A DNA stretch of 47,309 nt from an uncultured Candidatus Peribacteria bacterium (GTDB taxonomy: Bacteria > Patescibacteriota > Gracilibacteria > Absconditabacterales > Absconditicoccaceae). The translations under genes and the position numbers were made by a program. The notes beneath the pieces are model-generated. The model worked only from the letters and a program-made list of their open reading frames with translations. It was not told where the DNA came from and ran no database searches. Positions 7,101 to 46,733 of this stretch are shown piece after piece (positions within the stretch are counted from its first letter, which is position 1; each line of letters starts with the position of its first letter). The stretch covers positions 39,185 to 86,493 of the forward strand of contig CAZPFR010000001.1 in the NCBI GenBank assembly GCA_964586005.1, written 5' to 3'.

Positions 7101-7940
7101 TCCTATTGCTGAAGCAAATCATCAAGGAGTTATTTCTTTGTTGTATACCAAAAATAATGTATACTCTTTTTGAAGTCTGATGTTTGTTTCTAATTCATCG
7201 TCTATGTTATCAAAGAAAATTGCTGGATAATTATTGATAATATTCTCAACGTATAGTGGTTGTTTATTTTCTTTCTTTGCAAAAGCTTTATGTGAAAATC
7301 AACGTCTATCTTTTCGTTCTTGTACATTATTTCATGATTGAATAATGCTATTTGATTTATTTGCATCAAACCATGCTTCTAAGTTTTCTACATCAATAGG
7401 ACTATCTATTTCTTTTATTTCTATTGTAATATCTCAAGTAATTTCTTGAACATCTCAAGTGATTTCTTGAACATCTCAAGTGATTTCTTGAACATCTCAG
7501 GTTATTTCTTGAACATCTCAAGTAATTTCTTGAATATCTCAGGTTATTTCTTGAACATCTCAAGTAATTTCTTGAACATCTCAGGTTATTTCTTGAATAT
7601 CTCAAGTAATTTCTTGAATATCTCAGGTTATTTCTTGAACATCTCACGTAATTTCTTGGATGTTTCAAGATAAATTATCGTTTTGTTCGTCGTTTATATT
7701 TTCATCTTTGTTAATTATTTCATTTGTGTAAGTTTGAATTATTTCATCTTCGGTTATTATCGTTTGATCTCCAGTTTGAGCAAACATCGAATTTACAACA
7801 TAATATAGCCAAAATCCCAATACAACAAGACAAATATGCATATAACTTAAAAGTATATGTTTATGTTTATTTGCCAAATGTCCACTTTTGTGAATTAGAC
7901 TTCTGGCATTATGAATTATAAAATGTCTTGTTTTTCTCAT
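1107..7940 (-). CDS. giant (2277 aa) membrane-anchored multidomain surface/adhesin-like protein
   Basis: ATG 7940 to TAG 1107-1109. Every in-phase triplet was checked by hand: no TAA/TAG, many TGA. The track ORF 3141-3386 is in the same phase. Motifs seen: TM HICLVVLGFWLYYVVNSMFA; 11x (V/I)QEITGD. Three LamG-type domain ends: GGYIAEILIYDRGLSNYEI, GSIDEVRIYNKTLTNQEIQNLY, GMLDDVRIYNKTLTPSQVYNLY. PG-binding-like LIGDLQKFLYRYGVYNGEINNTYDQRTIEAIYQFQ (~6330-6540). DNRLRE-like ...KITSAKLRLS...SKEYGTIGERPMLTLTY (~3370-3990). Ig-like Big_5-type ...AFRDIAGNSFPG..WKFTT (~3030-3360). FN3-like RYYYKIQAINSAGES (~2440-2700). C-terminal WxL-like domain (~1107-1480). Confidence 0.85.
7431..7661 (-). repeat. 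11 tandem 21-bp in-frame repeats inside the giant gene
   Basis: Plus-strand unit atctcaagtaatttcttgaac x11, with variants at 3-4 positions. On the coding strand this is GTTCAAGAAATTACTTGAGAT = heptad (V/I)QEITGD. The Gly of every heptad is a TGA codon. Confidence 0.95.
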
Positions 7941-8139: not shown

Positions 8140-8706
8140 TTAATTTTCGATAATTGTATATGTTACTGTTGCTTGGTATGAACCAACTGCTTGATAAGCA
8201 GGTATAGTTACTTGTAGCCAAGGAAATGCTGCATATTGTCCTAATTTTCCAGCATTTGGAGCACTATCCCTTTTAATAAATGTTATAGCATTATTAAGTG
8301 GTGTGTAATTTAATAGAGTATTACTTACTACAACATTTGCATTAGCACTTCCATTGATAACTGATGTATTTACAGTGTCTACTTTTGCAGCAATATTTGC
8401 AGCTGGTATTGTTCCATTAGCTCCAGAAAGATCAGTTACTTGAAGAGTTGTGTAATATCAATCGTCAGCTCCTTTCATATCTTGAACTCGGAAGTAATTT
8501 CCTGTACCGAATTTTTTTTCTTGTGTGACTTCTGTTGTAGAAACAGCAAGACTTCCAAAATCTAATGCACCTGTTTGTCCAATAGTTACTTGTCCTCAGA
8601 TGATTGTTAAATAAACATCTGTACTTACTTGAGCTTTTGTTGTTGCGCCAAATATTGCAGCCAATAGGAAAGCCCCTACCAATAACGTTTTTGTTCTTTT
8701 AAACAT
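8140..8706 (-). CDS. small secreted protein with WxL-like domain, paralogous to the C-terminus of the giant protein
   Basis: ATG 8706, TAA 8140-8142, 188 aa. Signal peptide MFKRTKTLLVGAFLLAAIFGATTKAQV. NYFRVQDMKGADDGYYTTLQVTDLSG ... ITFIKRD ... FPWLQVTIPAYQAVGSYQATVTYTIIEN is collinear with the giant's DYFWIEDPIGTDNGYYTTISISDLSG ... ITYIKRD ... LRFDIPAFISIDAYHATLTYTLYEN. Confidence 0.8.
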
Positions 8707-15272: not shown

Positions 15273-16733
15273 ATGAACTTACAAGAACTTATTGCGACAT
15301 TAAATCCTCATCAACTTGCTTATATCAATATGGATCTCAAGGATCCTAAAAATGGGGATTATATGTTGAGTGTTTTTCATCTCATTCCTGGTGGGAAACT
15401 TAATATTTTGCAAGCGGCATGTGAAGTTGCTGCTGAATCTAGTACAGGGACAAATTTTTTGGTACAAACAGAAACTGCATACTCAAAAATGCTTAATGCA
15501 TTAGTATATCAAGTAGATTTGGAAAAAAATCTTGTACGGATTGCTTATCCATGGAGACTTTTTGATAGAAAAGGAAATGTTCAAAATATTTTGACGTATA
15601 TTGCAGGAAATGTCTTCTGAATGAAAGAAATTCAAGCCTTGAAACTTTTGGATGTTTGGTTTCCTCCTGCTATGCTTGAACAATATGATGGACCTAGTTA
15701 TACTTTGGATGATATGAGAAAATATCTCAATGTGTATGATAGACCAATTCTTGGAACTATTGTGAAACCAAAAATGGGACTTACTTCTGCTGAATATGCT
15801 GAAGTGGCTTATGATTTTCGGGTAGGATGAGGTGATTTTGTGAAAAATGATGAACCGCAGGCAGATCAAGATTTCTGTCCTTATGATAAAATGGTAGCTC
15901 ATATCAAAGAAGCTATGGATAAAGCAGTTAAAGAAACTGGTCAGAAAAAGGTACATTCATTTAATGTCTCAGCAGCAGACTATGATACGATGATTGCAAG
16001 ATGTGAGATGGTAGTAAATTCTGGTATGGAAAAAGGTAGCTATGCTTTCCTTATCGACTGAACTACAGCTGGATGGATGGCAGTACAAACACTTAGAAGA
16101 AAATATCCAGATGTGTTTATTCATTTTCATAGAGCAGGACATGGTGCTTTTACTAGACCAGAAAATCCTATTTGATATACTGTTTTAGTTTTATCTAAAT
16201 TTGCTAGACTTGCTGGAGCATCTGGAATTCATACCGGAACTGCTGGAGTTGGTAAAATGGCAGGAACTCCCGAAGAAGATGTTACAGCAGCACATAATAT
16301 TTTTTGACTTGATGCTCCAGGGCATATTTTCCAACAATCACGAGGAACTATTCCAGAAAACGATGAAGATCGATTAAATAAAGTCCAAGAAGATCATCAT
16401 CAACATCTAGTTAATGAAGATGATACTTGGAGAAATCTCAAAAAATGTTGTCCAATTATTTCTGGATGACTCAATCCAACTCTTTTGAAACCATTTATTG
16501 ATGTGATGTGAAATGTAGATTTCATTACAACTATGGGTGCTGGTTGTCATGCTCATCCTAGAGGAACAAAAATTGGAGCGACAGCATTAGTACAAGCATG
16601 TGAAGCATATAAAAAATGAATAGATATTGTAGAGTATGCAAAAGATCATATTGAACTTGCTGAAGCTATTGAATTTTTTACTAAGAAAGAAAATAAAGAT
16701 TTGAGGCATGCTGAGAGAAGAGAATCTAATTAA
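15273..16733 (+). CDS. rbcL: ribulose-1,5-bisphosphate carboxylase/oxygenase large subunit, form II-like / form II/III type
   Basis: 486 aa. It joins track ORFs 15189-15620, 15621-15830 and 15840-16061 in one phase. Catalytic motifs are present: GNVFG(TGA)[15 protein letters not shown](TGA)[27 protein letters not shown](TGA)[18 protein letters not shown](TGA)[13 protein letters not shown]. About 30 extra residues ([33 protein letters not shown], ~16347-16446) lie before the SGG motif. Confidence 0.93.
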
Positions 16734-19704: not shown

Positions 19705-19740
19705 TTAAAATAGGAGTAAACTCTCCTATTTTTTAAAAAA
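19705..19740. terminator. bidirectional rho-independent terminator between convergent genes
   Basis: Stem AATAGGAG / CTCCTATT (19709-19716 / 19723-19730), loop TAAACT, flanked by T6 on one side and an A-run on the other. It serves both the + gene ending at 19680 and the - gene ending at 19733. Confidence 0.7.
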
Positions 19741-20596
19741 TAGAACTGTCAATTAAATATGATGGTATTGGTAGTTTGTAGATTGATTCTAAACTAATTT
19801 TTTTTCAGTTAGAATATCAAAAACTTGATATGTATGTTTTTGGAAGGGGTAAATTGTTATCTCATGGTATTTGTAAACAGAATTCAAGTTGTGTATCGTT
19901 TTTATTTGCTATGATTAAATAATTTTGAAGATCATTGTCATATTGTCGATTTCTTATTGAAGGATCGTTATCTTCTCTAAATAAATTATGTGCTTTTACA
20001 TTAAAATCTTCAAAAAAATTTTCTCATCAAAATATTTCTGTTTCGAAAAATATTCCGGATTCTTTTATTGTTCCAGATGACGAAAGGATGATTCATATTC
20101 AAATATTTTGAGTAGTTTCAAGATCTCTTATTTTTATATCTTTTAGAATATATGATTTATTGCTATAATATTTTTGCTCAGAAAAATGTTCATTTATATT
20201 ATTATTTGGTTCATCAATAAATAAAGGAAGAATTAGACTTTCTCCTCAAGAGATATTGATTTTATTTGTACAAGAGTTTGTTTTGGGATGTCAATCTGAT
20301 AATAGGCTATTTTTTCATATAATTTCGATTCAAAATTTTGTAGATGCATTGATATTGTCTTTCACCAGATCATCGTTTTCATTTATTTTTATACTATATC
20401 ATTCTCAACGGATCTGGAGTAAACTTAGCCCTATTTCATTTCATCATTTTGCTAAGTAGTAACTTTTGTAATAATTGTGTATTTGATTTGTTTGGATTGC
20501 TATATGTTTTGTATATTGTACTGCCATTATTCCAATTAAAGAACAAGCGACTAAAACAAATAATACTAGTAAACTTATATTTCATTGTTTTTTCAT
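19733..20596 (-). CDS. PilX-like type IV pilus minor component
   Basis: 287 aa: MKKQG(TGA)NISLLVLFVLVACSLIGIMAVQYT ... SYYLAKGGNEIGL resembles the PilX N-terminal domain. It starts 5 nt after the preceding stop. Confidence 0.5.
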
Positions 20597-20601
20597 TTTT
20601 T

Positions 20602-21216
20602 TTATTGAAGATTAAAAAACTGTTGGAAAAGAATTGAACTTGTCCTTATTCGATTTCATTTTTCATATAAAGGACTGTATATACTGAAATGAATTAAAAA
20701 GCTCGGTTGTTTTATATATAACAAAGGAAATTCAATCTGACTATCTTGTATTATAGCATTGTTATCTTTGAATGGAAATATTGTAAAATATGGTTTGGAT
20801 ATAGAACTTTCACTAGGTGTTGTTATATTTGTTATTACTCAACTTGAATTTATAATGATTAATGTGCAAGGATTGTTTTTTTCTTCTTCGTTAAATCATG
20901 TGATTAAAGGAAAATCTGGTTTACATATTCCTGTACTAGTAATTGTTATGTTTCCCAATAATCAGGAGAGATATAATGTATCTGTTTTTTCTGTATTTAT
21001 CTGCTGATCAAAATTGAGACTATGATTGTCTGCTATATTTTGTAGTGTTTGATTGGTCCAAATTAATTCTTGTTGAATTTTTTTTTCTTGTTGTGTACGA
21101 AAACTTATCAATGATATAGTATTATACGTCCTAAAAAGGATAACCGTTAATACTCCGATCATACTAATTGTTATGAGTAATTCTATTAATGTAAATCAGA
21201 ATTTTTTATTGTTCAT
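20602..21216 (-). CDS. prepilin-type N-terminal cleavage/methylation domain protein (minor pilin/pseudopilin)
   Basis: 204 aa: MNNKKFG(TGA)FTLIELLITISMIGVLTVILF. It includes track ORF 20962-21162. Confidence 0.8.
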
Positions 21217-21218
21217 AA

Positions 21219-21788
21219 TTAGTAGTTTCAAATAAATGATTCCAATACAACTTCTCCTGTTTTTGATCATCTTTGGTATATTACGTGTGATTCTACTTTC
21301 AAAATTTTTCAGGTATTCAGTATGTTATCATGGTCTTTAACTCCTGTAAAATATATATATCTAGAATATTGTGTTGGTTGTTCGCTGGGCACATGAGTAT
21401 ATTCTAAAGATCAATTATTATTTATAAATAATTTTGTTTCTGATAGGTCGTTGGTTATAACTGGACTTCGTTCTACGGTGTTTATATCAACTATTCGTTT
21501 ATTTTGTCCTTCCAAAAAATAGTGTTTACATACATTAGTTCCCATAATGTCATAATATTCTTTGTCTACTATACAATCTCGTGGTAATCCAGCAATGCGA
21601 TTACTATCTCTAGTGTTATATGTTAGTTCTAAGCCTTCTTTTGCCAAAAGAGTTGCAGTTGTTTTTATTTCTAATTCGTTCATGGTGTTCATGTTGTACA
21701 TTATCAACTTTAATACAGCTAATACACCTACGGAAAAGATAAAAAGAACTATAATCATCTCTATTAATGTAAATCATTTCTTTTTCAT
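21219..21788 (-). CDS. prepilin-type N-terminal cleavage/methylation domain protein (minor pilin/pseudopilin)
   Basis: 189 aa: MKKKG(TGA)FTLIEMIIVLFIFSVGVLAV. It includes track ORF 21411-21758 and continues through TGA to TAA 21219-21221. Confidence 0.8.
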
Positions 21789-21802
21789 ATTGGTTTTTTG
21801 AT

Positions 21803-22315
21803 TTAAAAACTACTACAAGGAATATATTCTAATTTACATATGTTGGTTGTTATTTTGAAACAGTAAATTTTATTTCTAATTTCTGTTTTTATTTTAGTTA
21901 TTCCTTCTTGATCGTTTATTTTACATCCGATGGTATAGGGTAATAATTTTATATCTACAATATTTGAAGTCTGGTTGTTTATTTTAATTTCTTTTATTAT
22001 CTGTTTACTGTCAGAAAATCATGTAAATAATTTCATATCTCAAGATTCTTGCTCTAGTCTATAATCAAATCAATGTGATCATGTCTCAATTTTTATATAT
22101 AGTGCTGTATATCTTTCTTCTCCATTATAATTTGAACTCATATTACTCAATAAAAGTTGTTCATAATTATTTTTAAAATCATCTTTTCCAGTTTGAGCTT
22201 CAAGTTCTTTAATGCGTGAACCACTAAATTTCATAGTAATCGTCATAATTATTACAATTATTGATATTACGATAATAATTTCGAGTAATGTAAATCATTT
22301 CTTTTTTAGTTTCAT
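21803..22315 (-). CDS. prepilin-type N-terminal cleavage/methylation domain protein (minor pilin/pseudopilin)
   Basis: 170 aa: MKLKKKG(TGA)FTLLEIIIVISIIVIIMTIT. Confidence 0.8.
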
Positions 22316-22396
22316 CAAAAACATAGAAAATAAATTCTTTTATGTTATATATATTTTCATATATGATGCAATGTTATGTTTTTTATGAAATATCTC

Positions 22397-23515
22397 TTAT
22401 AATCAAACTCATTCCATGATATGTAGAATTAATCAGAATACGGCATATGCTATTATTACTACAATTCCTCACATACCTATTAACATAATAGGCTCAATAA
22501 CTTTTGATAAACGATTTATTTTAATATCTAATTCTGACTCATACATCTGTAATACATTATTTAATGATTCATCTAAATTAGCTGTTTGTTCTCCTACTTT
22601 TATCATTATAGCAATATCCGCAGGGATGAGCTCTCTATGATTTTTAATTGAAGTATAAATGTCTTTACCTTCTTTTAATCAATTAATTATTTCTTCTAAC
22701 ATATCTTGATATGCAGATATTCCTAAAATTTCTTTTAATAGTAAAAATGTTTGAATATAATTCATTCATGAACTATTCATAAGTTTCATATATCTACAAA
22801 ATTTTACAATATAATAATATTGTGTCATCTTTCCAATAAGAGGAATTTGCATCAAAGTAGAAAATCAGATTTTTTTTCATTTTTCTGTTGTTGAAAATAA
22901 TCAAATTATAATTCATATCGCTGTTATACTACCTGCAATACTTTTCCAATGAATTTTTAAAAATTCAGAAAGATCTCTCAATATTCTTGTTGCTCGTGGT
23001 AATTCTAAATTTTGAAAACTATCTGCAATAGAAAAAATAGAAGGTAATACTAAAGTAAATAAGCTAATTACAGCTATAATAGATATAATTAATAACATTA
23101 TCGGATAAATCATTGCTCATATATATTTGTTTTTGATTTCTTTTGTATACTCGTATTCTTTTGCTAATGATTCTAAGACTATAGCTAATTTACCTGATGC
23201 TTCACCTGTTTTGATTACTGCAATATCTCATTCGTTGAAATAATCTGGTAATCTTGATAATGAATAAGATAAAGACATACCTCTTTTTAAATATATTTGT
23301 ATTGTAGATGCCATATCTTTTAATGCAAAATTATCTGTTGATTCTTGAAGAATATTTGTTGCTTCATTTAATGATATTCCTCATTTTATTAAATAAGCTA
23401 TTTCTTTGAATAAAATTATTTTGTCTTTTTCAGAAAAATTTTTTTTATCTAGGGATTGTAAAAAATTTACTATAGCTTTATCAAAAAAATCATCTGTTTG
23501 TTTTAAATTATTCAT
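22397..23515 (-). CDS. pilC: type IV pilus / type II secretion platform protein (GspF/PilC family)
   Basis: 372 aa, all in-phase triplets checked. Two T2SSF-type repeats: IILFKEIAYLIKGGISLNEA...GDIAVIKTGEASGKL and FCRYMKLMNSSGMNYIQTF...IAIMIKVGEQTANLDESL. TM segments flank track ORF 22913-23113. Confidence 0.88.
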
Positions 23516-23519
23516 TAGT

Positions 23520-24299
23520 TTATTCTTTAGAATAAAATGCTTTTATTTGTATATCAACTAATTGCTCTTGATCATATTCCATAATATTGTAGTTTATTTC
23601 ATCTATTTTGTATAGAACACGATATTCTTTTTGTTCAGATACATTTTTATCTACGTTTTCTATAAATGATAATAAATAATCTTTATTAAGAAATTTTGCT
23701 TGGAGTTTTATTGGTATTGCATAAAGTTGTTCTTTTATATTTTCTGATTTTCAGAAAGAAATATTTATTATATTACCCAATTCTTGTTTATTTTCTTTGT
23801 CTTTTAATAAGTATTCGTTGATATTTGCTAATAATAATTTTTCATTAATTTCCATTTTATTATCTTGAAGATTATTTATTTGTAAATATGATCTAGCAAA
23901 TCCAAAATTATCTTTGATATCTTGTGGTATTTCGGGACATCCTGTTCTATAATTTACACAAGAAATAATGTTGTTTTCATTGTTTTCTATTAATGAAATA
24001 AGATCTTTATCTTTCTCATATTGATTCTTTTTGATTAAAAAATCATGTATTTGAGTCTCTTTTCATATAATAGTTTGTTTTAATTCTATTGTTTTCCCTC
24101 GGTTTGGTAATAAATATTCGGTAATACATAATACAATTAATAAAAATGTTATCAATACATATAACCTGTATTTTATTCATGAAACTCTAGCCATTGATAT
24201 TGAAATCTGAGCATCTTCTTTTGATTCTTTGTTATTTTTTTGTTGTTCCATCAACTTTTCAATAAGCTGATTTTGGTTCTCTTGGTTGTTATTTTCCAT
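23520..24299 (-). CDS. PilO-like pilus assembly protein (single TM, coiled coil, C-terminal globular domain)
   Basis: 259 aa. N/Q/E-rich N-terminus, TM YRLYVLITFLLIVLCITEYLL. Its ATG lies inside the last codons of the upstream pilN-like gene (ATGGAAAATAA overlap). Confidence 0.45.
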
Positions 24300-24825
24300 C
24301 TTTTATAACATTAGCTTCTAAAATAAATGAAAATCAATTACTATCATCTTTTTTTGTGTAATTTTTGATGTATAAATTTTCTATAAAATCTAAATCTTTA
24401 AATCTATCTATTAAAGAAATAATTCATTTATCTTTATCAGAATAATATAGTGAATTTAAATTAGATACTTCTCATCTTACCGATATTTTTTCTAAGTCAA
24501 CGTTGAAATCTGATAATAATATATCATTTCAACTTTGGTTTAAAGTTTTAATTTCTTGGAGCATAGTTATTATTTTATTGATATGCGTTGATCGTGGGGT
24601 TTCGTTATATTGTTCTTCAAGACTTTTTATAGCTATTAACTTTGTAAATCCGGTTAATGTTTTATAATTTTCTAATTCTTTATTTTGTTGTTCTATAATA
24701 ATATTTTTTTCTTGGATATTTTTGTTTAATAAAAATGTGTATCATTGTAATGCTAGATATGCCATTATTGATAGACCAAAAAGGATAAGAGTAAATGTAA
24801 AATATTTTTTTCGATTGGATTTCAT
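24289..24825 (-). CDS. PilN-like fimbrial assembly protein
   Basis: 178 aa: MKSNRKKYFTFTLILFGLSIMAYLAL (short cytoplasmic tail plus TM), a coiled coil, then ...LLSDFNVDLEKISVRGEVSNLNSL...FSFILEANVI, typical of the PilN C-terminal fold. Confidence 0.55.
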
Positions 24826-25014: not shown

Positions 25015-25087
25015 GCTCTTGTAGTTCAACGGGATAGAACAACTCTCTCCTAAGGAGTAAATACAGGTTCGAGTCCTGTCAGGGGTA
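25015..25087 (+). tRNA. tRNA-Arg (anticodon CCU)
   Basis: 73-nt cloverleaf folded by hand. Acceptor GCTCTTG/CAGGGGT (3 G-U pairs), D arm GTTC-AACGGGATA-GAAC, anticodon arm ACTCT-CT[CCT]AA-GGAGT, variable AAAT, T arm ACAGG-TTCGAGT-CCTGT, discriminator A. CCA is not encoded. Confidence 0.8.
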
Positions 25088-28127: not shown

Positions 28128-28577
28128 ATGAAGGTTGTTATTTTGGAAAATATACGTAGTGCTTATAATGTTGGAAATATTATTCGTACAGCTGATGCTT
28201 TGTGATGGAAGGTCTGGTTGACCGGTTATACACCATCTCCCTTAACTGTTCCTAAAGTAAAAAAAACTTCACTTGGAGCAGAAGAAACAGTTGATCTTCA
28301 ACAATTTTGATTCACCAAAGAAGCCATAGATGTGGCTAGAAATAAGTGACTTGTTGTTGTTGCGGCAGAGATAACAGATCATGCAGTACCTATTGACATG
28401 TATACTATTTCTAAAGATGGTATTGCTGTTATTTTTTGAAATGAAGTTGAGGGTGTTTTACAAGAAACACTAAAAAATGTTGATGATGTCGTCTTTATTC
28501 CTATGTCTTGAATAAAAGAATCTTTGAATGTTGGTCAAAGTTCTGCTATTATTATGTGGCAATTATGATTGTTGTAG
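28128..28577 (+). CDS. SpoU/TrmH-family RNA 2'-O-methyltransferase
   Basis: 149 aa: MKVVILENIRSAYNVGNIIRTADALG(TGA)W ... IAVIFG(TGA)NEVEGV ... VFIPMSG(TGA)IKESLNVGQSSAIIMW. Confidence 0.85.
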
Positions 28578-29159
28578 TTATCTTATTTTTATTGTTTTGA
28601 TGATGTTTTCTATATCTTTTTCGTACATTTTGAATGTTTCTTTTGTTGCTGTATAACTTATTATATATGCTAAATTATCTTTTAATATCAATGTTTGTTC
28701 TTGTTTTATAGTATTTTGTTCTTGATTGAAAGAATATGTTATTTTCTTTGCTGGAAAATTGTCTATTTCTTTATCTTCTTCGTTTTCTATTTGAAAATTT
28801 TCTCCTATATTATTTATCATTTTTTTGTTTTCTTCGTATAAATTTTTTAAACTTGTTCAAGATTGCACTAAATAAACAAGAAATCCTAAATTTTCTCTTG
28901 TTGCTTTTTCTTCTGTTTGTGGTGCAAAAAATATTACTGTAGATCAATAAATATTTTCTTTGAATGTTCGATTTCAAGGGAAACTTAATTTGAATCTATA
29001 TTGTTTGTTCTCATAATTATTTATGTTTGATTTTTTTTCTGTAATTTGTTCAATTTGGTTGTTTCAGGAATTTTCCTGAATTGTATTTTCTGGTTGCTTA
29101 TTACATCCAGATAGTACTATAACCAGAATTCACAATGAAATAATGATTTTCTTTGACAT
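28578..29159 (-). CDS. lipoprotein (possibly a PsbP/DcrB-like fold)
   Basis: 193 aa: MSKKIIISLG(TGA)ILVIVLSGCNKQ (lipobox LSGC). It includes track ORF 28578-28820. It starts 11 nt downstream of the CYTH-methyltransferase stop. Confidence 0.65.
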
Positions 29160-29170
29160 AAGAATATATA

Positions 29171-30439
29171 TTATAAAGTAAAAATATTTTTTTTGGCTAT
29201 AAGTATCGTGTTATTTGCAGTTTTCCATGTGTTTGTTACTTCTCATTGTTTGTTTGTATATATTAATTTCTCTATTAATAGTCAACTTTGTATACATATT
29301 TTTTTAAGCTCTTTTTTGGTAAATATATGATAAAATCTATAATATGTTTTGTTTTTTGATTTTCGAGGAATAAATAAATTATTTCGTTCATTATTATTTG
29401 GATTTATTAATTTTTTCAAAAAACTTTTTAAGATTATTTTTGTATAATTTTTTATCATTCGTAATGAAAATGATCGATTTGTTATTATTGTTACTCAACC
29501 ATATCTTAATGCTCTATATATAAGTTTCATAATTAAAAATCTTTGCTTTTTATTTGTTAAATGCTGAATACTTGCTATACCTACTATTATATCTATTGAT
29601 TCTTGTTTACACTTGGATAAATAGCCTATCATATCATCACAAATAAATTCTGTTTTAATGTTTTTTTGTGGTATTTGATTTTTTTTTGCTTCTTCTAATA
29701 TATTTTCAGATAGATCAATTCATGTATAATTAATTATTTTGTCTTTAATTACTGTCAAATGTTCCAATAATCTTCAGCTTCCACATCATAATTCTACTAT
29801 TCTTATTTGTTTTTCTGGGTAAGATGCAATGGTATTTATTATTATATCAGCATCATTTCGATATTTTTTTCTTGTTTGACTATATTTTAAAGCTTCTTGG
29901 TTATAAAATTCTTTAAGTTGAAAACGAATTATTATATCTTGGTATTTATTTTTTTTAATTAAACGATTCATTCAATGTTTTGCTAAAAAGCTATTGTTTC
30001 CTTCTTTTTGGTTTGTTATTTCTTTATAACATCGTTCTGGCGGTATAAATTTTTCACTTTCTCTTACTGATCAAAATTCTATTTCAGCGATTCGTAGTCA
30101 TTCAAGATTATCTTCAAACTTATTTATTTCAATATTATACCCTTTGTAAGGGTAAAAATAACGAGTTTTTTTGATCTTTTCGGTTGTAATATTTTTTCGA
30201 TACTCAATAAAATCTTTTTTATTTATTGTTTTTTCAAATTCTTCTCTTACTAATCCTTTCCCTTTTTTTCTTGTTAAAAAATATTTTTTTTGTGTTTTAC
30301 CCTTTTTTTTTGTAATAATTTCTCTTACTCTAATCTTTTTTTTATCGATTATTGTATATCATTGTAAAATTTCTTGTTGTTCACAAGTACTTATATCTGG
30401 AATGTTATTTATTAAGAATTTTCTTTCTATTTCTAACAT
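29171..30439 (-). CDS. fusion protein: N-terminal CYTH (triphosphate tunnel metalloenzyme) domain plus C-terminal class I SAM-dependent methyltransferase (Trm9/Methyltransf_11-like)
   Basis: 422 aa, translated block by block without a stop. CYTH: MLEIERKFLINNIPD ... QGYTI ... RVRE ... YNIEINKFEDNLEGLRIAEIEF. MTase: IRIVELG(TGA)CGSG(TGA)RLLEHL (motif I), IDLSENILEEAKK, IIVGIASIQHL, RALRYGGVTII, and a tail LFIPRKSK..TYYRFYHIFTKKELKKICIQSGLLIEKL...NTWKTANNTILIAKK. Confidence 0.8.
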
Positions 30440-30453
30440 GATTTATGTGCTAT

Positions 30454-31353
30454 TTAAAATAAACTTGTTTCTTGATGATTTGTTTCTTTTTCATTTTTTT
30501 CTTTTGTATTAGATAATTTAAGAAAATCTTCTTCATCAAATATTTTTTCTTCGTTTTCTATAAATATTTTTTTGAAATGTATTAAATATAATGTTAGTAA
30601 AGCTGTCATTCTTACATCGTTTTTACAGTATATTTTGAATTCTTCTAAATATTTTAAATCCTTTGTTTCTTGATATTTTTTCCATAATGTTTCTCATTCC
30701 GCTCATGATTCTAATGTTTTTTGTATTCCAACCAATGCACTTGCTACTTTATTTAACCCTAATCTTTTTCCTGTCAGTTTATTTAAAAATACATATAAGT
30801 CTATGCTTTTGTCGTTTATCTCATTAAGATCTTCTTCTGTTTTTCAACAATTGTATATACATACAGGATTATCAAACCATATGTTATTATATCATATAAT
30901 ATATCAATCAAAATCAATCATTTTTTGTACAAATTCAGTCAGATTGTTTTGATCTATATATTCATATTCCATTTTATTGTTTTCTGCTGGATACATTGCA
31001 TATCATAGTAAAAATTTAGCATCTTTGATGTCATCACTTAATGTTGTTTCTATATCATATACCATATAAGGTTTGTTATTTATTGTTGAATAAGCTCCTG
31101 ATGAAAATTCGTCCATAAGTATTTGTTCAATTGTTTTTTGTCCTGTTTGTTTTTCTTTTTTGATTATAAAATTTTTGATTATATTATGGAGTTCTTTTTT
31201 GCCTTCTTCATCTATTATTATTTCTATTTTTTCTCTTTCATCTCTTATAATTATCTCATTGTTCTCTGTTTGTGAAAAACTAAATATTATTTCGGATCTA
31301 TTGCAATAATAAATATCTTTACCTTCTCTAAAAATTTTTTTGAAAAAATCCAT
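30454..31353 (-). CDS. DnaQ/RNase H-like fold 3'-5' exonuclease domain protein with ~95-aa N-terminal extension
   Basis: 299 aa, all in-phase triplets checked. Exo I MVYDIETT, Exo II IIGYNNIWFDNPV, Exo III YCKNDVRMT. It includes track ORF 31003-31353. Confidence 0.75.
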
Positions 31354-31453
31354 AATTCATAGACAGCGTTCTTTCTTTATATTGCTATATAAATTTTGTA
31401 TAAAATTATTTTGTATCGATTTTAATTCTTGTAATGAGAACCTTTTGTACATA

Positions 31454-33670
31454 TTATTTTGTGTTTTCTGATGTAAATTTTTGGTATATTATGAATTCTT
31501 CTGGGCTTATTTCTTTTATTGTTTTTAGAGGATCTGATACAAAATTATCAATTTTTATTTTGTTTTCATCGTTTAATGTCAGACTTAAATTCTTTATAAG
31601 AAGGGGTATATTGTTTGAATCTATTTTTTTAAAATAAATTGGTTCTATTTTATGGTCTTCTATATTATAATATCCAATAAAGGAAATTCATTGTATAATA
31701 AAATCAATTAGTACTTTATTGTTTTTTTCTACGATATCTGATACAGTGATTCAAAGAAACTGTTTAACTCTTTCTATAATAATAATACTATTTATAGATC
31801 ATTCTGAATTATTTGATGTTTCTGGAACGTAGGTTAATAGTCATTGAATGATGCTTTTTATAAAGAGAGCAAATTTTTCTTTACTTTGATCAGTGTTTGA
31901 TGTTTGTATTATATTATTTATTATTTTTCTTGCCTCTTCATCTGATACATCTATCTTATTTAAAATAAAATTGTTGTGTAAAAAAGTGATTGTTATAATA
32001 TTATTTTTCCAAAGAACGTCGATATCTATGTTTGTTTTATTACAAGTTTTTAACTCTTGTCTTGGTAAAAGAATTTTAATTGTGGTACATAACTTATTTA
32101 TTTCTTCTTCTTGTATTTCTTGTCCTACTTCTCAGAATAATGTTTTATTTTGTTCTATATATTTTTGTAAATCACTAAAAGATCGTTTCTGAGATGTACA
32201 CAATTTATTTATTGATTCAGTTATTTCAGTAAATCAAATTAATACTATATTTTTTACATATAATGTATTTTTTTCTTCTTCTAAAGTTATTTCTAAAGGA
32301 ATTTTTGTTTCTAGATTCCAATCTCATTCTATTTTTATTGTGTTTCATGAAATTATTTTTTTATTTATGCTTATTATGTTGATTTGTTGGAGTAAATTCT
32401 CAATCAAATTGATTTGATTTTCGTTATTTTGTTCTGTATTGTTTTCTCCTGTGTTAGTAATAATAAAATCATTTTGTAAAATATTTTTGTTTATTTGATC
32501 TTTTAATCAATTATATCCTATTAATTTGTTTCAATTATTTATGTTTATGATTTGCTTTTCTATTTCATTGAGTTCAAATTTATTAGTTATGTTTTTGATT
32601 ATTTCTGTCTTTTGTAGGTTTTCTTTGATATAATAATTATTAAAATAATATATTACTTCCTTATAAAAATTTCAGATTTGATTTCTTTTTAATATTTCTT
32701 GTATAAAACTAAAATATCAGTTTAAACTATCTATATTTAATCTATTATTTTTTATATCTTCGTATATTATTTGTTGAAATGATATTAATTTATAGATATT
32801 TATTTTTTCATTTTTATATATTTTATTACTTATAAATTTGTTGTATAGCTCATTTTGTACATCAATAAAATTTGTAAAAGTAATATAACTGTCTTTGTAT
32901 TCTGATCAACAATTTTCTAAAAAATTTTGAATTGTGATATTTTGACTGTTGGTGTAATATGTATAGTATAATAAATTCTGACACATTTTTTCTTTATGTT
33001 TTTTTTGTTTTATAATATTATTAAATATTGGTTCTATATTTATATTATCTTGTTCTATATTATAAATAAAAAATTCTTTTATAAATTTCTCTGTGAATAT
33101 ATCACAAATTGAATTTGTTATTTTTTTCTCGAATAGACATTGTAAATTAAATTCTTCTATAAGATTTTTATTGATTGGAAATAAGGTATTTAATTTTGTT
33201 TCCTTGGAAATTCATTTACTTCATAAAATGATATTTTTAAAAAATATTGCCATTTCTTCTTTTGTATATGTTCATTTTTGAAAATACGGTAAAGGTTGAA
33301 TAGGTGCTGTCTTCGTTATGCTAAAAAATCTTGGTACAATAAATCATTTATACGTTACTAAATTGTTGTAAGAACTAATAATTTCATTTTCTTCTTGTAT
33401 ATCATCTGTTATTATTTCTCCCGAAAAAAAATATAAGGTATTTTTTTTATTTATTTTTTTAAAAAATTCTTGTATTGTTTTTTGTTTAATTGTATCTAAG
33501 CTGTTTATGTCATATATTAAATTTGCTTGTTTATTTAATATATTGTATATTTTGAATATTACAAAAACTCCTATTATGATAAAAATCCCATAGGTAAATA
33601 GTATTTTATATATTTTTCAATACTTTTTCAGTATTTCTTGAGTCTTTTCTTGTAATTGTTGTTTGTTCAT
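31454..33670 (-). CDS. large orphan protein (738 aa) with an N-terminal TM anchor
   Basis: ATG 33670, TAA 31454-31456. Every in-phase triplet was checked: no TAA/TAG. TM ILFTYGIFIIIGVFVIFKIY. The rest is N/I/K/E-rich with no motif I recognise. Confidence 0.75.
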
Positions 33671-33809
33671 TTTTTATTATTCAAATAATAATTTTGTTCA
33701 TTATACTTTTTTCTTAGTTGTTTTTCAATCTTTAAATTATTGTTTTTTCTATAAAATATAGCAATTCTTATTTGTATTTTTGTTTTTTGTAAAAAAAATA
33801 ATAAAAGTC

Positions 33810-33837
33810 TTGCAAAAAAAGTTTTTTTCTCTATATT
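33810..33837 (+). promoter_or_regulatory. candidate promoter of the repeat lipoprotein gene
   Basis: TTGCAA (33810-33815)-N16-TATATT (33832-33837), about 43 nt upstream of ATG 33880. Confidence 0.4.
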
Positions 33838-33879
33838 GGCCGCGCTGTTAAGTTTTTTATTTTTGTAAAAATTTGTCAA

Positions 33880-34122
33880 ATGAAAAAATTATTGACATTA
33901 AGTGCTCTTGTTTTGACTGTTTTATTAGCTGGATGTGGACAAACTGAAATTTCTGAAGAAGAAGTTGCAGCTCCAGTTGTAGAAGAAGCAGTAGCTCCAG
34001 TTGTAGAAGAAGCAGTAGCTCCAGTTGCAGAAGAAGCAGTAGCTCCAGTTGCAGAAGAAGCAGTAGCTCCAGTTGCAGAAGTAGCTCCAGTTGCTGAAGA
34101 AACTCCAGTTGCACCTCAATAG
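33880..34122 (+). CDS. lipoprotein with tandem EEAVAPV(V/A) repeats
   Basis: 80 aa, intact in the standard track. MKKLLTLSALVLTVLLAGCGQ (lipobox LAGC), then about 5.5 copies of an 8-aa acidic Ala/Pro/Val repeat. TAG at 34120-34122. Confidence 0.85.
   Translation: MKKLLTLSALVLTVLLAGCGQTEISEEEVAAPVVEEAVAPVVEEAVAPVAEEAVAPVAEEAVAPVAEVAPVAEETPVAPQ
33958..34110 (+). repeat. 24-bp tandem repeats (about 6 copies) inside the lipoprotein gene
   Basis: Unit gaagaagcagtagctccagttgca, with copies starting at 33958, 33982, 34006, 34030 and 34054, plus degenerate copies from 34078. The unit is 50% GC in an otherwise very AT-rich window. Confidence 0.95.
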
Positions 34123-34161
34123 TATATTTTTGGTTGCAACTTTTAGTTAAAACTATAAAAG

Positions 34162-34186
34162 AAGTCGATTTATCGACTTTTTTTTA
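34162..34186 (+). terminator. rho-independent terminator
   Basis: AAGTCGA-TTTA-TCGACTT followed by T7. Confidence 0.7.
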
Positions 34187-34201: not shown

Positions 34202-34933
34202 ATGAAATTACGTGAATTTTTACAACAACAATGAATATCTAGGAGAACTATTATTTCATATATAAATAATAATCAATTATTTTTGAATTGAGTTATTGTT
34301 CAATCTTATTGATTGGAAATAAAACAAGGAGATTGTATTCATACTGTTGACAAAAAATGGATATATGAAAATATGTCAATATCTGAAAAAAAACAATTTT
34401 TATGTTTTTATAAACCAGTTGGTTGTGTATGTTCTAAATTAGATAAATATAATACGACTATTTATAATTATCTTCCTGAAATATATCATAATCGATATTA
34501 TATAGGAAGATTAGATAAAGATAGTCGTTGACTTGTTTTATTAACAAATGATCCTAAAATAGTTAATGAATATGAACATCCACGTCATTGAATAACTAAA
34601 GAATATCTTGTTACATTAAATAAATCTTTTAGTAAAGAAGATGTAAAACGTTGTTTAGAAGGAATTGAAAATGAAGGAAATATATTAAAAGCTGTTGAAT
34701 GTCAGATTTTTGATGATGTATTGTACGATAAAAATAAAAAATATTTATTGAGTAATTGTGTTAAAAAACCGTCATGTGTAATAAAAATTGTTTTAAATGA
34801 ATGAAAAAAAAGACATATTAGAAGAATGATGAGCTCAATGAGATATCATGTGGAGGATTTAGTGAGAATTCGTGAAGAAAAATTTGAGTTATGAGATTTG
34901 AAAGAAGGTTCTTTTGCTTTGTATGATTTATAA
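34202..34933 (+). CDS. rsuA: rRNA pseudouridine synthase, RsuA/RluB family
   Basis: 243 aa. S4-like MKLREFLQQQG(TGA)ISRRTIISYINNNQLFLNG(TGA)V, catalytic GRLDKDSRG(TGA)LVLLTNDP, then KEYLVTL and EG(TGA)KKRHIRRM. Confidence 0.85.
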
Positions 34934-44058: not shown

Positions 44059-44908
44059 GCCATTAATAAGTATATTAGTACCTACCTATAATAGATTAAA
44101 TTATCTAAAAGAGTGTTTAGATAGTATTGTTTCTCAAAAATGATTTTTGAAATCCGATTTAGAATTAATTGTTTCTGATAATTCTGATAATGATGAAACC
44201 AAAAAATTTATGAACCAATATATTAAAGAAAATAATAATTGGGGTATTTATTATAATAAAAACAATAAAAATCTATGAATGGTTTGAAATTGGAATAAAT
44301 TACTAGAATTAAAAAAATGAGAATATTTTATCTTTTTATCTGATGATGATAAATTTTATGATGAAAATAGTTTAAAAATATTATATGATAATTTGATTAA
44401 ATATAATTTGGATGTTTGTTATTGAAGGTATATGTGTATAAATGAATTATCTATATATAGTCAGTTTAAACCCCATAATAAAGTTAATAATAAGGATATT
44501 TATTATGATATTTTTCAAGAACAGATTATTTGACATACAATCTCATTTTGATGAATTTTATATAAAAGTATATGAAAAGTGTATGATGAAAATTTTTGAA
44601 ACTATGCTGATTGGGATTTTAATCTTAATTATTTATATAATTGAAAAAAAATATGATTGATTAATAAATATACTTTTTTATATAAAATTCATACCAATCA
44701 AAATATTAATTCAATTAATGTTTTTTTGGACTATAAATTGTATATATTATGAATGAAAAAATATAAATATAATAAAATAACAAAAAATATATTAATGAAA
44801 ATAATAAAAGTATATCCTATTATGATTATTTTAGATGTAATCAAAAAAATATGATTATACTCTTTTTTTAAAAAAATTGAATATAAAATATGTCAAAAAT
44901 CAGTATAA
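44045..44908 (+). CDS. family 2 glycosyltransferase
   Basis: 287 aa, all codons checked: KPLISILVPTYNRLNYLKECLDSIVSQ...ELIVSDNSDNDET...FIFLSDDDKF. The start overlaps rfbH by 14 nt. Confidence 0.85.
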
Positions 44909-45113
44909 TAACAACAACTTATAATCATAAAGATTTTATAAAAGATACAATTGAAAGTATAATAAATCAATCTTTTTCTGATCGAGAACTTTTGATTTGA
45001 GATGATTCTCCTGATAATAAGACTTGGGATATTATACAGAGTTATGTAAAAAAATATCCAAATAAAATAAAAGCGTGGCATCATCAACCAAATAAATGAA
45101 TAGTAGATAATAT
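44890..45113 (+). repeat. 224-bp segment identical to 45762-45985
   Basis: Base-for-base identity from the ATG of paralog A to the ATG-proximal 224 nt of paralog B (offset 872). The first mismatch is 45114 g vs 45986 a, after which the genes diverge strongly. Confidence 0.95.
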
Positions 45114-45750
45114 GAATTTTTTGCTATCTAAAATAAATTACGCTTCAGAATATGTTGCTTTTTTAGAATGAGATGATATGTACGCAAAAAATAATTTAGA
45201 AGAGAAAATAAAAATATTTAGAAAATATAAAGATGTTTTTTTAGTTTATAGTGATTTTTCTATTATTGATAAACAAAGAAAAACAATTAAGGAAAAATGT
45301 TATGATATTCATTTTCCAGTTCCAAACAATGTTGTTTGTGACTCTTATTTATTTGCTACTTCTCCTATAAATATATTTTCTTATACAAATTGTATGATAA
45401 GAAAGGATATTTTATCTTCTATAAAAATTAGAAATTTAACTTGAAATAAATCGTTTTCTACTTCTGATTGGGATTTTTATTTTCAAATATTAACTAAATA
45501 TAAAAATTATTATATAAATGAGCCTTTATTTTTTTATAGAATCCATTGAAATAATATAACATTAAAAAATAATAATATTTTGTTAGATCTATGGGAAATA
45601 TATTATTATTATATTTCTTTCTGAATTTTTAAAAAAAATAAAATTTTATATATTATTATTAATCCTTTTAAATCAACAATTAAACAGAAACTTAAATTAT
45701 TTGTTGCATTATTTATTCCTATTAAATATATCAAAAAACTTTTAGCCTAA
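44890..45750 (+). CDS. family 2 glycosyltransferase (paralog A)
   Basis: 286 aa, all codons checked: MSKISIITTTYNHKDFIKDTIESIINQSFSDRELLIGDDSPDN...FLEGDDMY. The start overlaps the previous gene by 19 nt. Confidence 0.85.
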
Positions 45751-45761
45751 ATCTTATTTTA

Positions 45762-45985
45762 ATGTCAAAAATCAGTATAATAACAACAACTTATAATCAT
45801 AAAGATTTTATAAAAGATACAATTGAAAGTATAATAAATCAATCTTTTTCTGATCGAGAACTTTTGATTTGAGATGATTCTCCTGATAATAAGACTTGGG
45901 ATATTATACAGAGTTATGTAAAAAAATATCCAAATAAAATAAAAGCGTGGCATCATCAACCAAATAAATGAATAGTAGATAATAT
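45762..45985 (+). repeat. 224-bp segment identical to 44890-45113
   Basis: See the partner feature. The identical antisense track ORFs 44893-45087 and 45765-45959 are a by-product of this repeat. Confidence 0.95.
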
Positions 45986-46733
45986 AAATTTTTTGTTGAA
46001 AATGGTTGATAAAAAATCTGAATATATATCATTTTTAGAATGAGATGATATGTTTGTTTCAGATAATTTGGAAAAAAAATTAAAGATATTTTATCAGTAT
46101 AAAAATATTGCATTAGTTTATAGTGATTTATCTTTTATTGATAAAAATAATCATATTATATTAAAAAGTTTTTTTGATCGAAGAAATATTCCTTTTTTCC
46201 AGAATGAAATTATTTCAATTCAAAAATTTATTTTACAACCAGCTTGACCTATAGCATCATGGAGTACCTGTATGATTAAAAAAACTGTATTGGAGAAATA
46301 TAATGTAATAAGTTTAGAACCATCTAATAAAAAATATTCAGTTTCAGATTATGATTTGTATTTTAGAGTATCTTCTGAAAATAAAGTTTTTGGTATAAAA
46401 GAATCTTTGACTTTATATAGGAGACATCAATGAAATTTGTCTTGAAGTAATTGATGAACTTCTGATGATTTAGAAAAATTAATAGATTATTATTATAAAC
46501 AAAAAATAATAAATATATCTTTATACGGTAAAAAAAAATCTTGGACCAATATAGTTTCTGTTATATTTGCTCTTGAAGCTTGAAATAAAAAATCAGCATT
46601 AAAAAAATATATAAAATCATTTAAATATTGATTTTTATCATATCCTTTGTTTAAAATAGCTATTCTTTGATTTTTTATTCTACCTACAGTAATAAATAGA
46701 AAAATTCTTAATTTTTTTATTAAGAGAGGATAA
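45762..46733 (+). CDS. family 2 glycosyltransferase (paralog B)
   Basis: 323 aa, all codons checked. The first 74 residues are identical to paralog A, then ...INFLLKMVDKKSEYISFLEGDDMFVSDN... Confidence 0.85.

Follow-up and report, generated by a model that had tools for sequence, protein, structure and literature searches.

A predicted DEDDy exonuclease and a Trm9-like methyltransferase in a conserved four-gene block of UGA-recoded Absconditabacterales

In this study, we have analyzed a block of four genes on a 47,309-nucleotide (nt) stretch of DNA (the window) from an uncultured Candidatus Peribacteria bacterium that is placed in the order Absconditabacterales (assembly GCA_964586005.1, contig CAZPFR010000001.1, positions 39,185 to 86,493). 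The closest relatives of the window are SR1/Absconditabacteria genomes. Read with genetic code table 25, positions 28578 to 33670 are filled by four intact co-directional open reading frames (ORFs) on the minus strand, here called g1 to g4 in the order of their presumed transcription (lengths in amino acids [aa]):

31454-33670, minus strand: g1, 738 aa, single-pass membrane protein of no known family
30454-31452, minus strand: g2, 332 aa, predicted DEDDy 3'-5' exonuclease
29171-30439, minus strand: g3, 422 aa, fusion of a CYTH domain and a Trm9-like class I S-adenosylmethionine (SAM) methyltransferase
28578-29159, minus strand: g4, 193 aa, PsbP_2/DcrB-like lipoprotein
33700-33728, minus strand: sigma-70-like promoter match (TTGAAA-17-TATAAT, 11/12), some 30 nt ahead of the ATG of g1

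Genetic code, gene models, and transcription

Under the standard bacterial code (table 11), the block region fragments into ORFs of 40 to 116 aa. The open-frame coverage of the window grew from 9 to 65 kb when UGA was read as sense, and none of the other stop reassignments that were compared reached this value. The RuBisCO gene of the window (15273-16733, plus strand) has eight in-frame UGA codons, of which seven align to Gly in PDB 8VGS and six in 5MAC, in motifs such as VGGGDF and ISGGLNP; none of the eight aligned to Trp. Within the block, UGA-encoded Gly completes the SAM motif ELGCGSG of g3 and the Exo II motif IIGYN of g2, and UGA is the commonest Gly codon across g1 to g4 (for example, 18 of the 25 Gly codons of g1). 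These data indicate that UGA is read as glycine (table 25) throughout the window.

A preliminary description of this DNA had proposed four co-directional genes with spacers of 100, 14, and 11 nt. The tight, operon-like arrangement was confirmed, as were the spacers of 14 nt (g2-g3) and 11 nt (g3-g4); the 100-nt spacer was not. Because the N-terminal sequence MYKRF is invariant in all aligned g2 orthologs (20 or more), the start of g2 was placed at 31452, 1 nt past the g1 stop. The public gene call for the g2 gene of the window (P0067, 30454-31353) gives a 299-aa protein that begins 33 codons short of the MYKRF start, and this late start appears to be the same as the one used in the preliminary description. 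In the protein database entry for the g1 gene of the window (P0001), UGA is translated as Trp. The practical lesson is that pipelines that misassign UGA or choose a late start codon distort the g1 to g4 proteins.

A 209-nt intergenic region (33671-33879) parts g1 from a divergent small lipoprotein gene. At the other end of the block, g4 and a convergent SpoU gene lie back to back at 28577/28578 with a gap of 0 nt, as they also do in RAAC1_SR1_1 (locus L001, 13121/13122), which leaves no space for a terminator between the genes. Both boundaries agree with those originally proposed. The site at 33700-33728 gave the top score of the whole 6.4-kb scan; however, promoter-like sites overall were not enriched over shuffled sequences (59 versus 52) in this AT-rich DNA, and they constitute weak evidence. 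No minus-strand terminator-like hairpin was found within 28578-33670. It is probable from the gene layout that g1 to g4 are cotranscribed from a promoter just upstream of g1; since the promoter-like matches were not enriched over shuffles, cotranscription is to be regarded as plausible and not as proven.

Products of the four genes

The domains that could be delimited in g2 and g3 are as follows:

31078-31452, minus strand: g2, aa 1-125, N-terminal domain with no assigned function
30553-31077, minus strand: g2, aa 126-300, PolB/PolA-type exonuclease domain
30457-30501, minus strand: g2, aa 318-332, disordered tail ending in QETSLF
29960-30439, minus strand: g3, aa 1-160, CYTH/triphosphate-tunnel domain
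29174-29917, minus strand: g3, aa 175-422, Trm9-like class I SAM methyltransferase

Of the four products, that of g2 shows by far the strongest conservation; it is 82% and 60% identical to close and distant orthologs, respectively, compared with 52% and 33% for g1. It matched Pfam RNase_H_2 (PF13482) above the cut-off (E=5e-14, residues 132 to 288). The complete Exo I to III motifs that had been noted earlier are indeed present, as YDIETT (D133/E135), GYNNIWFDN (D194), and YCKNDV (Y275/D279); together they supply the DEDDy catalytic set D133, E135, D194, Y275, and D279, which is invariant in 20 orthologs. By these motifs, g2 is assigned to the DEDD (DnaQ-like) 3'-5' exonuclease superfamily.

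For the structure and representative searches, the NCBI table-25 orthologs P0002 and P0068 were used as first rows. The AlphaFold2 model of g2 had a predicted local distance difference test (pLDDT) score of 85.6, except in the disordered tail (residues 318 to 332; pLDDT <50). All of its Foldseek PDB neighbors at E<=1e-3 were DNA polymerases or polymerase complexes (the N-terminal half of Pol epsilon, T7, Tgo/KOD/9°N, and Pol alpha), with a probability of 1.00 and E-values down to 3e-5, and there was no RNase among the top 50. The PHROGs matches of g2 were to 'DNA polymerase' and 'DNA polymerase exonuclease subunit'; searches of PDB by sequence, single and profile, gave no match. The modeled fold of g2 is thus that of a DNA-polymerase-type (DEDDy) proofreading exonuclease, with a predicted activity on DNA.

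With the corrected start, the N-terminal extension of g2, which had been put at 95 aa, measures about 125 to 130 aa. This domain of about 125 aa is conserved, and no sequence-level relative of it was found. Its equation with the PolB N-terminal domain was set aside as unproven; a single alignment of 391 columns to Pol2(1-528) had a root mean square deviation of 24 Å.

At the other end of the protein, the sequence xQ[NS][ILM]F, followed by zero to two residues, closes all 111 of the 111 full-length homologs, an arrangement characteristic of docking peptides that are carried by flexible linkers. The beta-clamp-binding motif, QL[S/D]LF or QxxLF, usually lies at a flexible terminus, and its positions 1, 4, and 5 are critical (PMC12309361). 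Positions 3 to 5 of this motif fit the g2 tail; most homologs have their Gln one residue nearer, and in the subclade of the window (QETSLF) it lies one residue further away.

The likeness between g2 and the proofreading modules of family B and family A DNA polymerases lies in the DEDDy set, the fold, and the PHROGs families. Unlike these modules, g2 stands alone, with no polymerase domain, and has its own N-terminal domain and a C-terminal putative docking peptide. Stand-alone DnaQ-superfamily 3'-5' DNA exonucleases, as g2 is predicted to be, include DnaQ/epsilon and MrfB/YprB, the mitomycin-repair exonuclease of Bacillus subtilis. MrfB is a DEDDh enzyme that has a C-terminal tetratricopeptide repeat (TPR) domain and has the helicase MrfA as its partner (PMC11194089), and epsilon carries a weak clamp-binding hexapeptide, QTSMAF (PMC12309361). 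Both MrfB and epsilon are DEDDh enzymes, whereas g2 is of the DEDDy type. Orthology of g2 with MrfB/YprB was ruled out: g2 has Tyr and not His, no TPR, and a short disordered tail only. No helicase gene was seen to adjoin g2 in the annotated loci. Our literature search yielded nothing specific on proofreading subunits in candidate phyla radiation (CPR) bacteria.

The fusion of a triphosphate-tunnel domain to a SAM methyltransferase, as first described for g3, was verified. Residues 1 to 153 matched the CYTH triphosphatase NE1496 (2FBL/3TYP; E=2e-12); the Pfam CYTH model gave no match at E<=0.01. The tunnel residues are present in g3 as EIERK (3-7), RVR (37-39), TRK (56-58), KTR (91-93), and EIE (119-121), and the corresponding ExExK, RxR, TxK, KxR, and ExE residues are conserved across the fusion proteins. 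The domain is accordingly classed, by sequence, with the CYTH/triphosphate tunnel metalloenzymes and should be catalytically competent. Its likeness to the inorganic triphosphatase NeuTTM/NE1496 extends over the whole domain and the tunnel residues; the difference is that the g3 domain is fused to a methyltransferase. No description of CYTH-methyltransferase fusions was found among the papers searched.

The C-terminal half of g3 matched Pfam Methyltransf_25/11 (class I SAM methyltransferase). The best PDB match of the methyltransferase family profile was Trm9 (5CM2 chain Z; E=3.7e-14, versus E=2.2e-7 for the cap N7 methyltransferase Ecm1, 1RI1), with an end-to-end alignment that takes in the TR, xH, D.x(V/I)P, and R(F/Y)YH motifs. 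In PHROGs, the domain was placed in a family that bears the annotation 'tRNA methyltransferase' (E=4e-13). The residues essential in ScTrm9 are R29, D72, H116, W145, W168, R241, Y243, and N271 (PMC4678810). In g3, R190, E216, H293, R368, and Y370 are the counterparts of Trm9 R29, D72, H116, R241, and Y243, and they are invariant; the counterpart of N271 is ambiguous and cannot be placed. The resemblance to Trm9, a tRNA 5-carboxymethyluridine (cm5U34) carboxyl methyltransferase, therefore consists of the end-to-end profile match and five essential-residue counterparts; the differences are that the essential base-stacking residues W145 and W168 of Trm9 are not conserved and that in the subclade of the window g3 is fused to a CYTH domain. 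We regard the g3 methyltransferase as Trm9-like, with its carboxylate-positioning residues intact, and a tRNA as its likely substrate. Enzymes of the Trm9 type act on tRNA U34 and have Trm112 as an obligate activator. To our knowledge, cm5U has not been reported in bacteria. Related to the Trm9 of eukaryotes and archaea but found in bacteria, and sometimes fused to a triphosphate-tunnel enzyme, g3 is among the leads that the block offers.

Two further candidates that concern g3 were rejected. An mRNA-capping-like apparatus was discarded: there is no guanylyltransferase among g1 to g4 or the adjacent flanking genes, the methyltransferase is closer to Trm9, and the CYTH domain is not ancestral. 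A methyltransferase from a member of the Falkowbacteria (P0065, 32% identity) lies in a context that is not comparable and is uninformative about the block.

The first description of g1, as a 738-aa protein with one N-terminal transmembrane segment and no recognizable motif, holds. Searches of Pfam, NCBIfam, PADLOC, and PHROGs gave no match, and a g1 profile found nothing among PDB sequences at E<0.1. The single hydrophobic transmembrane helix spans approximately residues 23 to 41 (33548-33604), and its flanks carry charges of +3 on the N side and -1 on the C side. Because the N-terminal flank is positive and the C-terminal flank slightly negative, the topology predicted as most likely has a short cytoplasmic N terminus and the bulk of the protein outside the cytoplasm. 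Six Cys residues are invariant across 20 g1 homologs, which fits a body that is extracytoplasmic and probably disulfide bonded, and we view g1 as a multidomain protein.

In the AlphaFold2 model of the g1 ortholog from RAAC1_SR1_1 (mean pLDDT, 78), the transmembrane helix is followed by a small beta unit, a long helical domain, and three modules that each comprise a helix plus four strands. Foldseek searches with this model, as had been suggested earlier, found no significant neighbor in PDB (best E, 0.05; TM-scores of <=0.1) or in BFVD, where two matches at E<1e-3 were dismissed (TM-scores of <=0.15). The PDB search gave only local SnoaL/NTF2/cystatin-like and VirB8-like hints, below significance. 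Neither a ComEC- or ComEA-like domain nor a nuclease-like domain was detected in g1 by family, profile, and fold searches. In both libraries, the Foldseek matches of g1 that fall short of significance repeatedly include bacterial beta clamps and PCNA (probability of <=0.1; TM-scores of about 0.05 to 0.1); these probably reflect the repeated helix-plus-sheet modules and provide no evidence of homology.

An exhaustive profile search recovered 294 representative clusters of g1 homologs, nearly all full length and about 700 to 950 aa long. A subset (P0232, P0246, and P0260; about 880 to 970 aa) has an Asn/Gln/Glu-rich N-terminal extension of 160 to 240 aa before the transmembrane helix. This extension is of low complexity, opens with a conserved M(T/I)FRPSDDV, is presumably cytoplasmic, and contains no Pfam domain. 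A surface-protein family with some 300 representative clusters and no recognizable fold may matter for the epibiotic lifestyle of these bacteria.

The assignment of g4 as a lipoprotein was borne out by a lipobox, LSGC, at aa 16 to 19 (29103-29114). The protein matched PsbP_2 (PF18933; E=4e-15, 56.7 bits against a cut-off of 27) and DcrB (PF08786; E=7e-9, 36.2 bits against a cut-off of 27.2), and it is predicted to be a PsbP_2/DcrB-type lipoprotein. Both Pfam gathering scores and the lipobox support this likeness; for neither family is a biochemical function defined through which g4 could be linked to g1 to g3.

Distribution of the genes and interpretation of the block

The preliminary description called for a conservation check of the block in related genomes. 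We compared 72 loci from species-representative genomes, anchored on g2 and scored by hidden Markov models on table-25 six-frame ORFs; gene presence and absence were scored at loci around g2 or the methyltransferase. The loci are labeled as SR1/Absconditabacterales type or as generic uncultured bacterium, except for L071, which is titled Rickettsia conorii and is presumably mislabeled.

The block is not an orphan, as had been supposed, but is widespread in the lineage: the full arrangement g1-g2-methyltransferase-g4 was found in 36 of the 55 fully assessable loci. It is likewise not indivisible. Among the same 55 loci, g2 stood alone in 10, only g2 and the methyltransferase were present in 5, g4 was lacking in 2, and g1 was lacking in 2 (or perhaps 1, since L015 showed g1 in another scoring). 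In L063, g1 has been deleted and g2, the methyltransferase, and g4 have been kept. The methyltransferase gene comes next after g2 in 54 of 66 loci, and g4 lies downstream of this pair in 41 of 62 assessable loci. The fusion of CYTH to the methyltransferase is restricted to 7 of 66 loci, all relatives of the window, a pattern that marks the CYTH domain as a late fusion confined to this subclade.

The contexts in which the genes occur apart differ as well. The loci with g2 alone include the human-oral SR1 HOT-345, and most of them share the context RelA/SpoT-x-x-MscL-YbaB-g2-NrdR. The loci with only g2 and the methyltransferase include the most divergent ones (g2 36 to 38% identical), and their flanks differ, with ABC transporter-like genes (judged by eye from translations) and PBP1A. 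A metagenome search anchored on the methyltransferase found approximately 10 or more contigs with this gene and no g1, g2, or g4 within 5 kb, in a context of dCMP-deaminase-like, YebC-like, FtsX-like, and TPR genes, the methyltransferase, and a DnaK-like gene (judged by eye); several further metagenome contigs carry the methyltransferase alone. The situation that would speak against a single system, genes that occur apart and in other contexts, therefore obtains in part of the lineage: g2 between YbaB and NrdR, g2 and the methyltransferase without g1 and g4, the gene set of L063, and the methyltransferase beside DnaK. The co-occurrence and stable linkage expected of an obligate four-gene functional module were not observed, and the most persistent linkage among the block genes is that of g2 with the methyltransferase. 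Our search for literature on the block genes in Absconditabacteria found nothing specific.

The cluster around the solitary g2 genes was seen in L022, L024, L030, L041, L046, L049, L053, and L069; it comprises RelA/SpoT, two proteins of about 390 aa with no assigned function, MscL, YbaB/EbfC, g2, and NrdR.

Where the block is present, synteny continues beyond it, into a divergent small lipoprotein gene and a pseudouridine synthase gene upstream and into SpoU and Dus genes downstream. Since synteny runs past the four genes into the pseudouridine synthase and SpoU genes, the order within the block is seen as largely inherited chromosomal gene order. With moderate confidence, we conclude that the block is a vertically inherited, lineage-specific housekeeping cluster of Absconditabacterales (SR1) and not one four-part molecular system. 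The proposal that a nuclease, a triphosphate-acting domain, a methyltransferase, and a membrane component form a single machine for defense or uptake is disfavored by the separability of the genes, the late CYTH fusion, and the lack of a defense signal.

It can be envisioned how such a cluster would work. The account that follows starts from the domain identities, the conservation of catalytic residues, and the gene order and distribution; its substrates, clamp docking, cotranscription, and any partnership of g1 with g4 are put conditionally. The older, cytoplasmic pair would be g2 and g3. The g2 product would trim DNA 3' ends in replication or repair, and its C-terminal xQ[NS][ILM]F peptide, on a disordered linker, would dock on another protein, for which the beta sliding clamp is the most plausible candidate. 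The g3 methyltransferase, with the Arg, His, and Arg-Tyr residues of Trm9, would methyl-esterify a carboxyl-bearing modified nucleoside in tRNA. In the subclade of the window, g3 would have gained an N-terminal CYTH domain that would hydrolyze a triphosphate (inorganic triphosphate [PPPi], a nucleoside triphosphate, or a 5'-triphosphate end [5'-ppp]). Two envelope proteins, g1 and g4, would have been added around the g2-g3 pair in one large clade.

Several observations sit uneasily with this account. The order g1-g2-methyltransferase-g4 is kept down to 30 to 34% g1 identity while the outer flanks change (L002, L004, and L005), which could reflect functional coupling rather than inertia. The pair of g2 and the methyltransferase survives in the most divergent loci with both flanks different, and some link between the two is plausible. 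The absence of g1 and g4 refers to the neighborhood of g2 only. With regard to the activities, the clamp-motif match is imperfect, with the Gln of g2 offset by one from QxxLF (PMC12309361); the Trm9 E-value is only about 10-fold better than that of a generic methyltransferase; and Trm9-essential W145 and W168 are not conserved, their counterparts in the g3 family being Arg or variable.

One alternative is that the block belongs to an RNA/tRNA-maturation supercluster, in which g3 and g2 (as an exoribonuclease, like RNase D) would act together with the flanking pseudouridine synthase, SpoU, Dus, and RsmG products, and g1 and g4 would be passengers. RNA-modification genes do flank the block and are syntenic in most loci, although small genomes hold many such genes, and neighbors of this kind would be expected by chance. 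For the methyltransferase, both the best PDB match, a tRNA methyltransferase, and the PHROG 'tRNA methyltransferase' suit this proposal. The case of g2 is different: DEDDy enzymes do include RNase D and NrnC (PMC11194089), but the top 50 Foldseek neighbors of g2 are DNA polymerases and their complexes, with no RNase, and its PHROGs matches are DNA polymerases. The pair of g2 and the methyltransferase is kept in the most divergent loci, yet a lone g2 sits between genes for YbaB (DNA binding) and NrdR (deoxynucleoside triphosphate supply). We consider this explanation unlikely.

A more specific role for g2 can be framed from its fold and tail, namely, that it is a stand-alone, polymerase-B-derived DEDDy component of the replisome that sits on the beta clamp by means of its invariant C-terminal peptide and serves Absconditabacterales as a trans-acting proofreader or 3'-end editor. 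In this detailed form the proposal is speculative and we would not expect it to be correct as a whole. A highly conserved, polymerase-type, stand-alone exonuclease with an invariant putative docking peptide could show how reduced genomes edit DNA 3' ends. A specific role can also be framed for g3: the Trm9-like methyltransferase, with CYTH in one subclade, would methyl-esterify a wobble-uridine derivative and so help tRNA-Gly(UCA) to read UGA and not UGG. We consider this role less likely than the one framed for g2.

The four-component system envisaged in the preliminary description, a membrane-linked apparatus for nucleic acid processing or uptake, appears improbable. In such a system, capture or translocation of nucleic acid at the envelope would be the part of g1 and g4; g2 would serve to degrade the nucleic acid, for instance to salvage nucleotides where the organism cannot make its own, and g3 would either modify it or act on ends that carry a triphosphate. 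The tight co-directional block, with spacers of 1 to 14 nt, and an order that 36 of 55 species share and that is kept where g1 identity falls to about 30% are as such a system would predict, but every gene was found without the others and CYTH is a late fusion. Absconditabacteria have been proposed to take up host DNA (PMC8080830), and a 3'-5' exonuclease would suit the degradation of imported single-stranded DNA; however, g2 and g3 have no signal peptides and look cytoplasmic, whereas g1 and g4 are predicted to be extracytoplasmic. Moreover, no ComEC-, ComEA-, or nuclease-like domain was detected in g1, nor could the protein be placed in a family, and the methyltransferase is Trm9-like and not a DNA methyltransferase.

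Finally, an antiphage defense island of nuclease, methyltransferase, and membrane effector is very improbable: such enzymes with a large unknown protein are a common theme of defense systems and the PADLOC check did return mad2 for the g3 methyltransferase, but that match covers the generic SAM-binding core only, g1, g2, and g4 have no match in PADLOC-DB v2, the block occupies the same chromosomal place beside ribosomal and RNA-modification genes in most species, g2 is conserved at 60 to 82%, like a core gene, and neither a composition anomaly nor an integrase, transposase, or tRNA-flanked island was found, the latter three in the Pfam-scanned parts of the window.

The housekeeping-cluster explanation is thus the one that we retain. 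If it is correct, the block matters little as a system, being an inherited order among unrelated housekeeping genes and not a new machine for defense or uptake; its individual parts offer leads that can be tested in a recoded, host-dependent lineage of bacteria that is still poorly understood.

Flanking genes and other features of the window

The genes and features that adjoin the block are as follows:

28128-28577, plus strand: SpoU-family RNA 2'-O-methyltransferase (PF00588, E=4e-31), convergent with g4
33880-34122, plus strand: small Ala/Pro/Glu-rich lipoprotein with lipobox LAGC, divergent from g1
34157-34184: terminator-like hairpin with a 12-bp stem, after the small lipoprotein gene
34202-34933, plus strand: pseudouridine synthase (PF00849, E=2e-20), divergent upstream neighbor

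The SpoU gene was present in 32 of 56 assessable loci and the pseudouridine synthase gene in 46 of 63. The small lipoprotein, which is made almost wholly of (E)EAVAPV(V/A) repeats and has a weak LptM-type lipobox match, is encoded by a gene that lies divergent to g1 in many related loci as well.

The surroundings of the block are ordinary chromosome. The base composition is AT rich, with a GC content of about 0.19 to 0.32 per 2-kb bin, and it showed no anomaly. By Pfam, the genes of the window include those for S1, Dus, SpoU, RsmG, NDK, a sigma factor, RuBisCO, an M29 peptidase, and type IV pilus proteins. A radical SAM protein resembling spore photoproduct lyase is encoded as well, and the Pfam-scanned parts showed no integrase, transposase, or tRNA-flanked island. 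A run of sugar-nucleotide/glycosyltransferase-like genes was recognized from translations and from the annotations of RAAC1_SR1_1 orthologs.

The following observations concern other parts of the window. The minus-strand ORF at 1107-7940 encodes 2,277 aa with 97 UGA codons, an N-terminal transmembrane segment, and tandem heptads, GD(I/V)QEIT, repeated about 12 times; the flanking segments 3-1046 and 8140-8706 gave weak, subthreshold matches to WxL-interacting-protein and WxL-domain families. This ORF and its neighbors probably constitute a surface adhesin cluster. The RuBisCO large subunit encoded at 15273-16733 (plus strand) closely matched 8VGS, its nearest solved structure (E=1e-256), and 5MAC, deposited as type III (E=1e-247), and is presumably of the kind used for nucleoside salvage in CPR bacteria. 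On the minus strand, 19733-24825 holds a type IV pilus/type II secretion system (T2SS)-like cluster with T2SSF at 22397-23515 and several pseudopilin-like ORFs with N-terminal GFTLIE motifs; two proteins of this cluster, within 23520-24825, have a single transmembrane segment and belong to no family. The sole tRNA gene of the window is tRNA-Arg(CCU) at 25015-25087 (plus strand). Two adjacent glycosyltransferase-like ORFs at 44890-45750 and 45762-46733 (plus strand) are identical over their first approximately 75 residues (MSKISIITTTYNHKDF...GIVDN) and then diverge, which looks like a recent tandem duplication or recombination.

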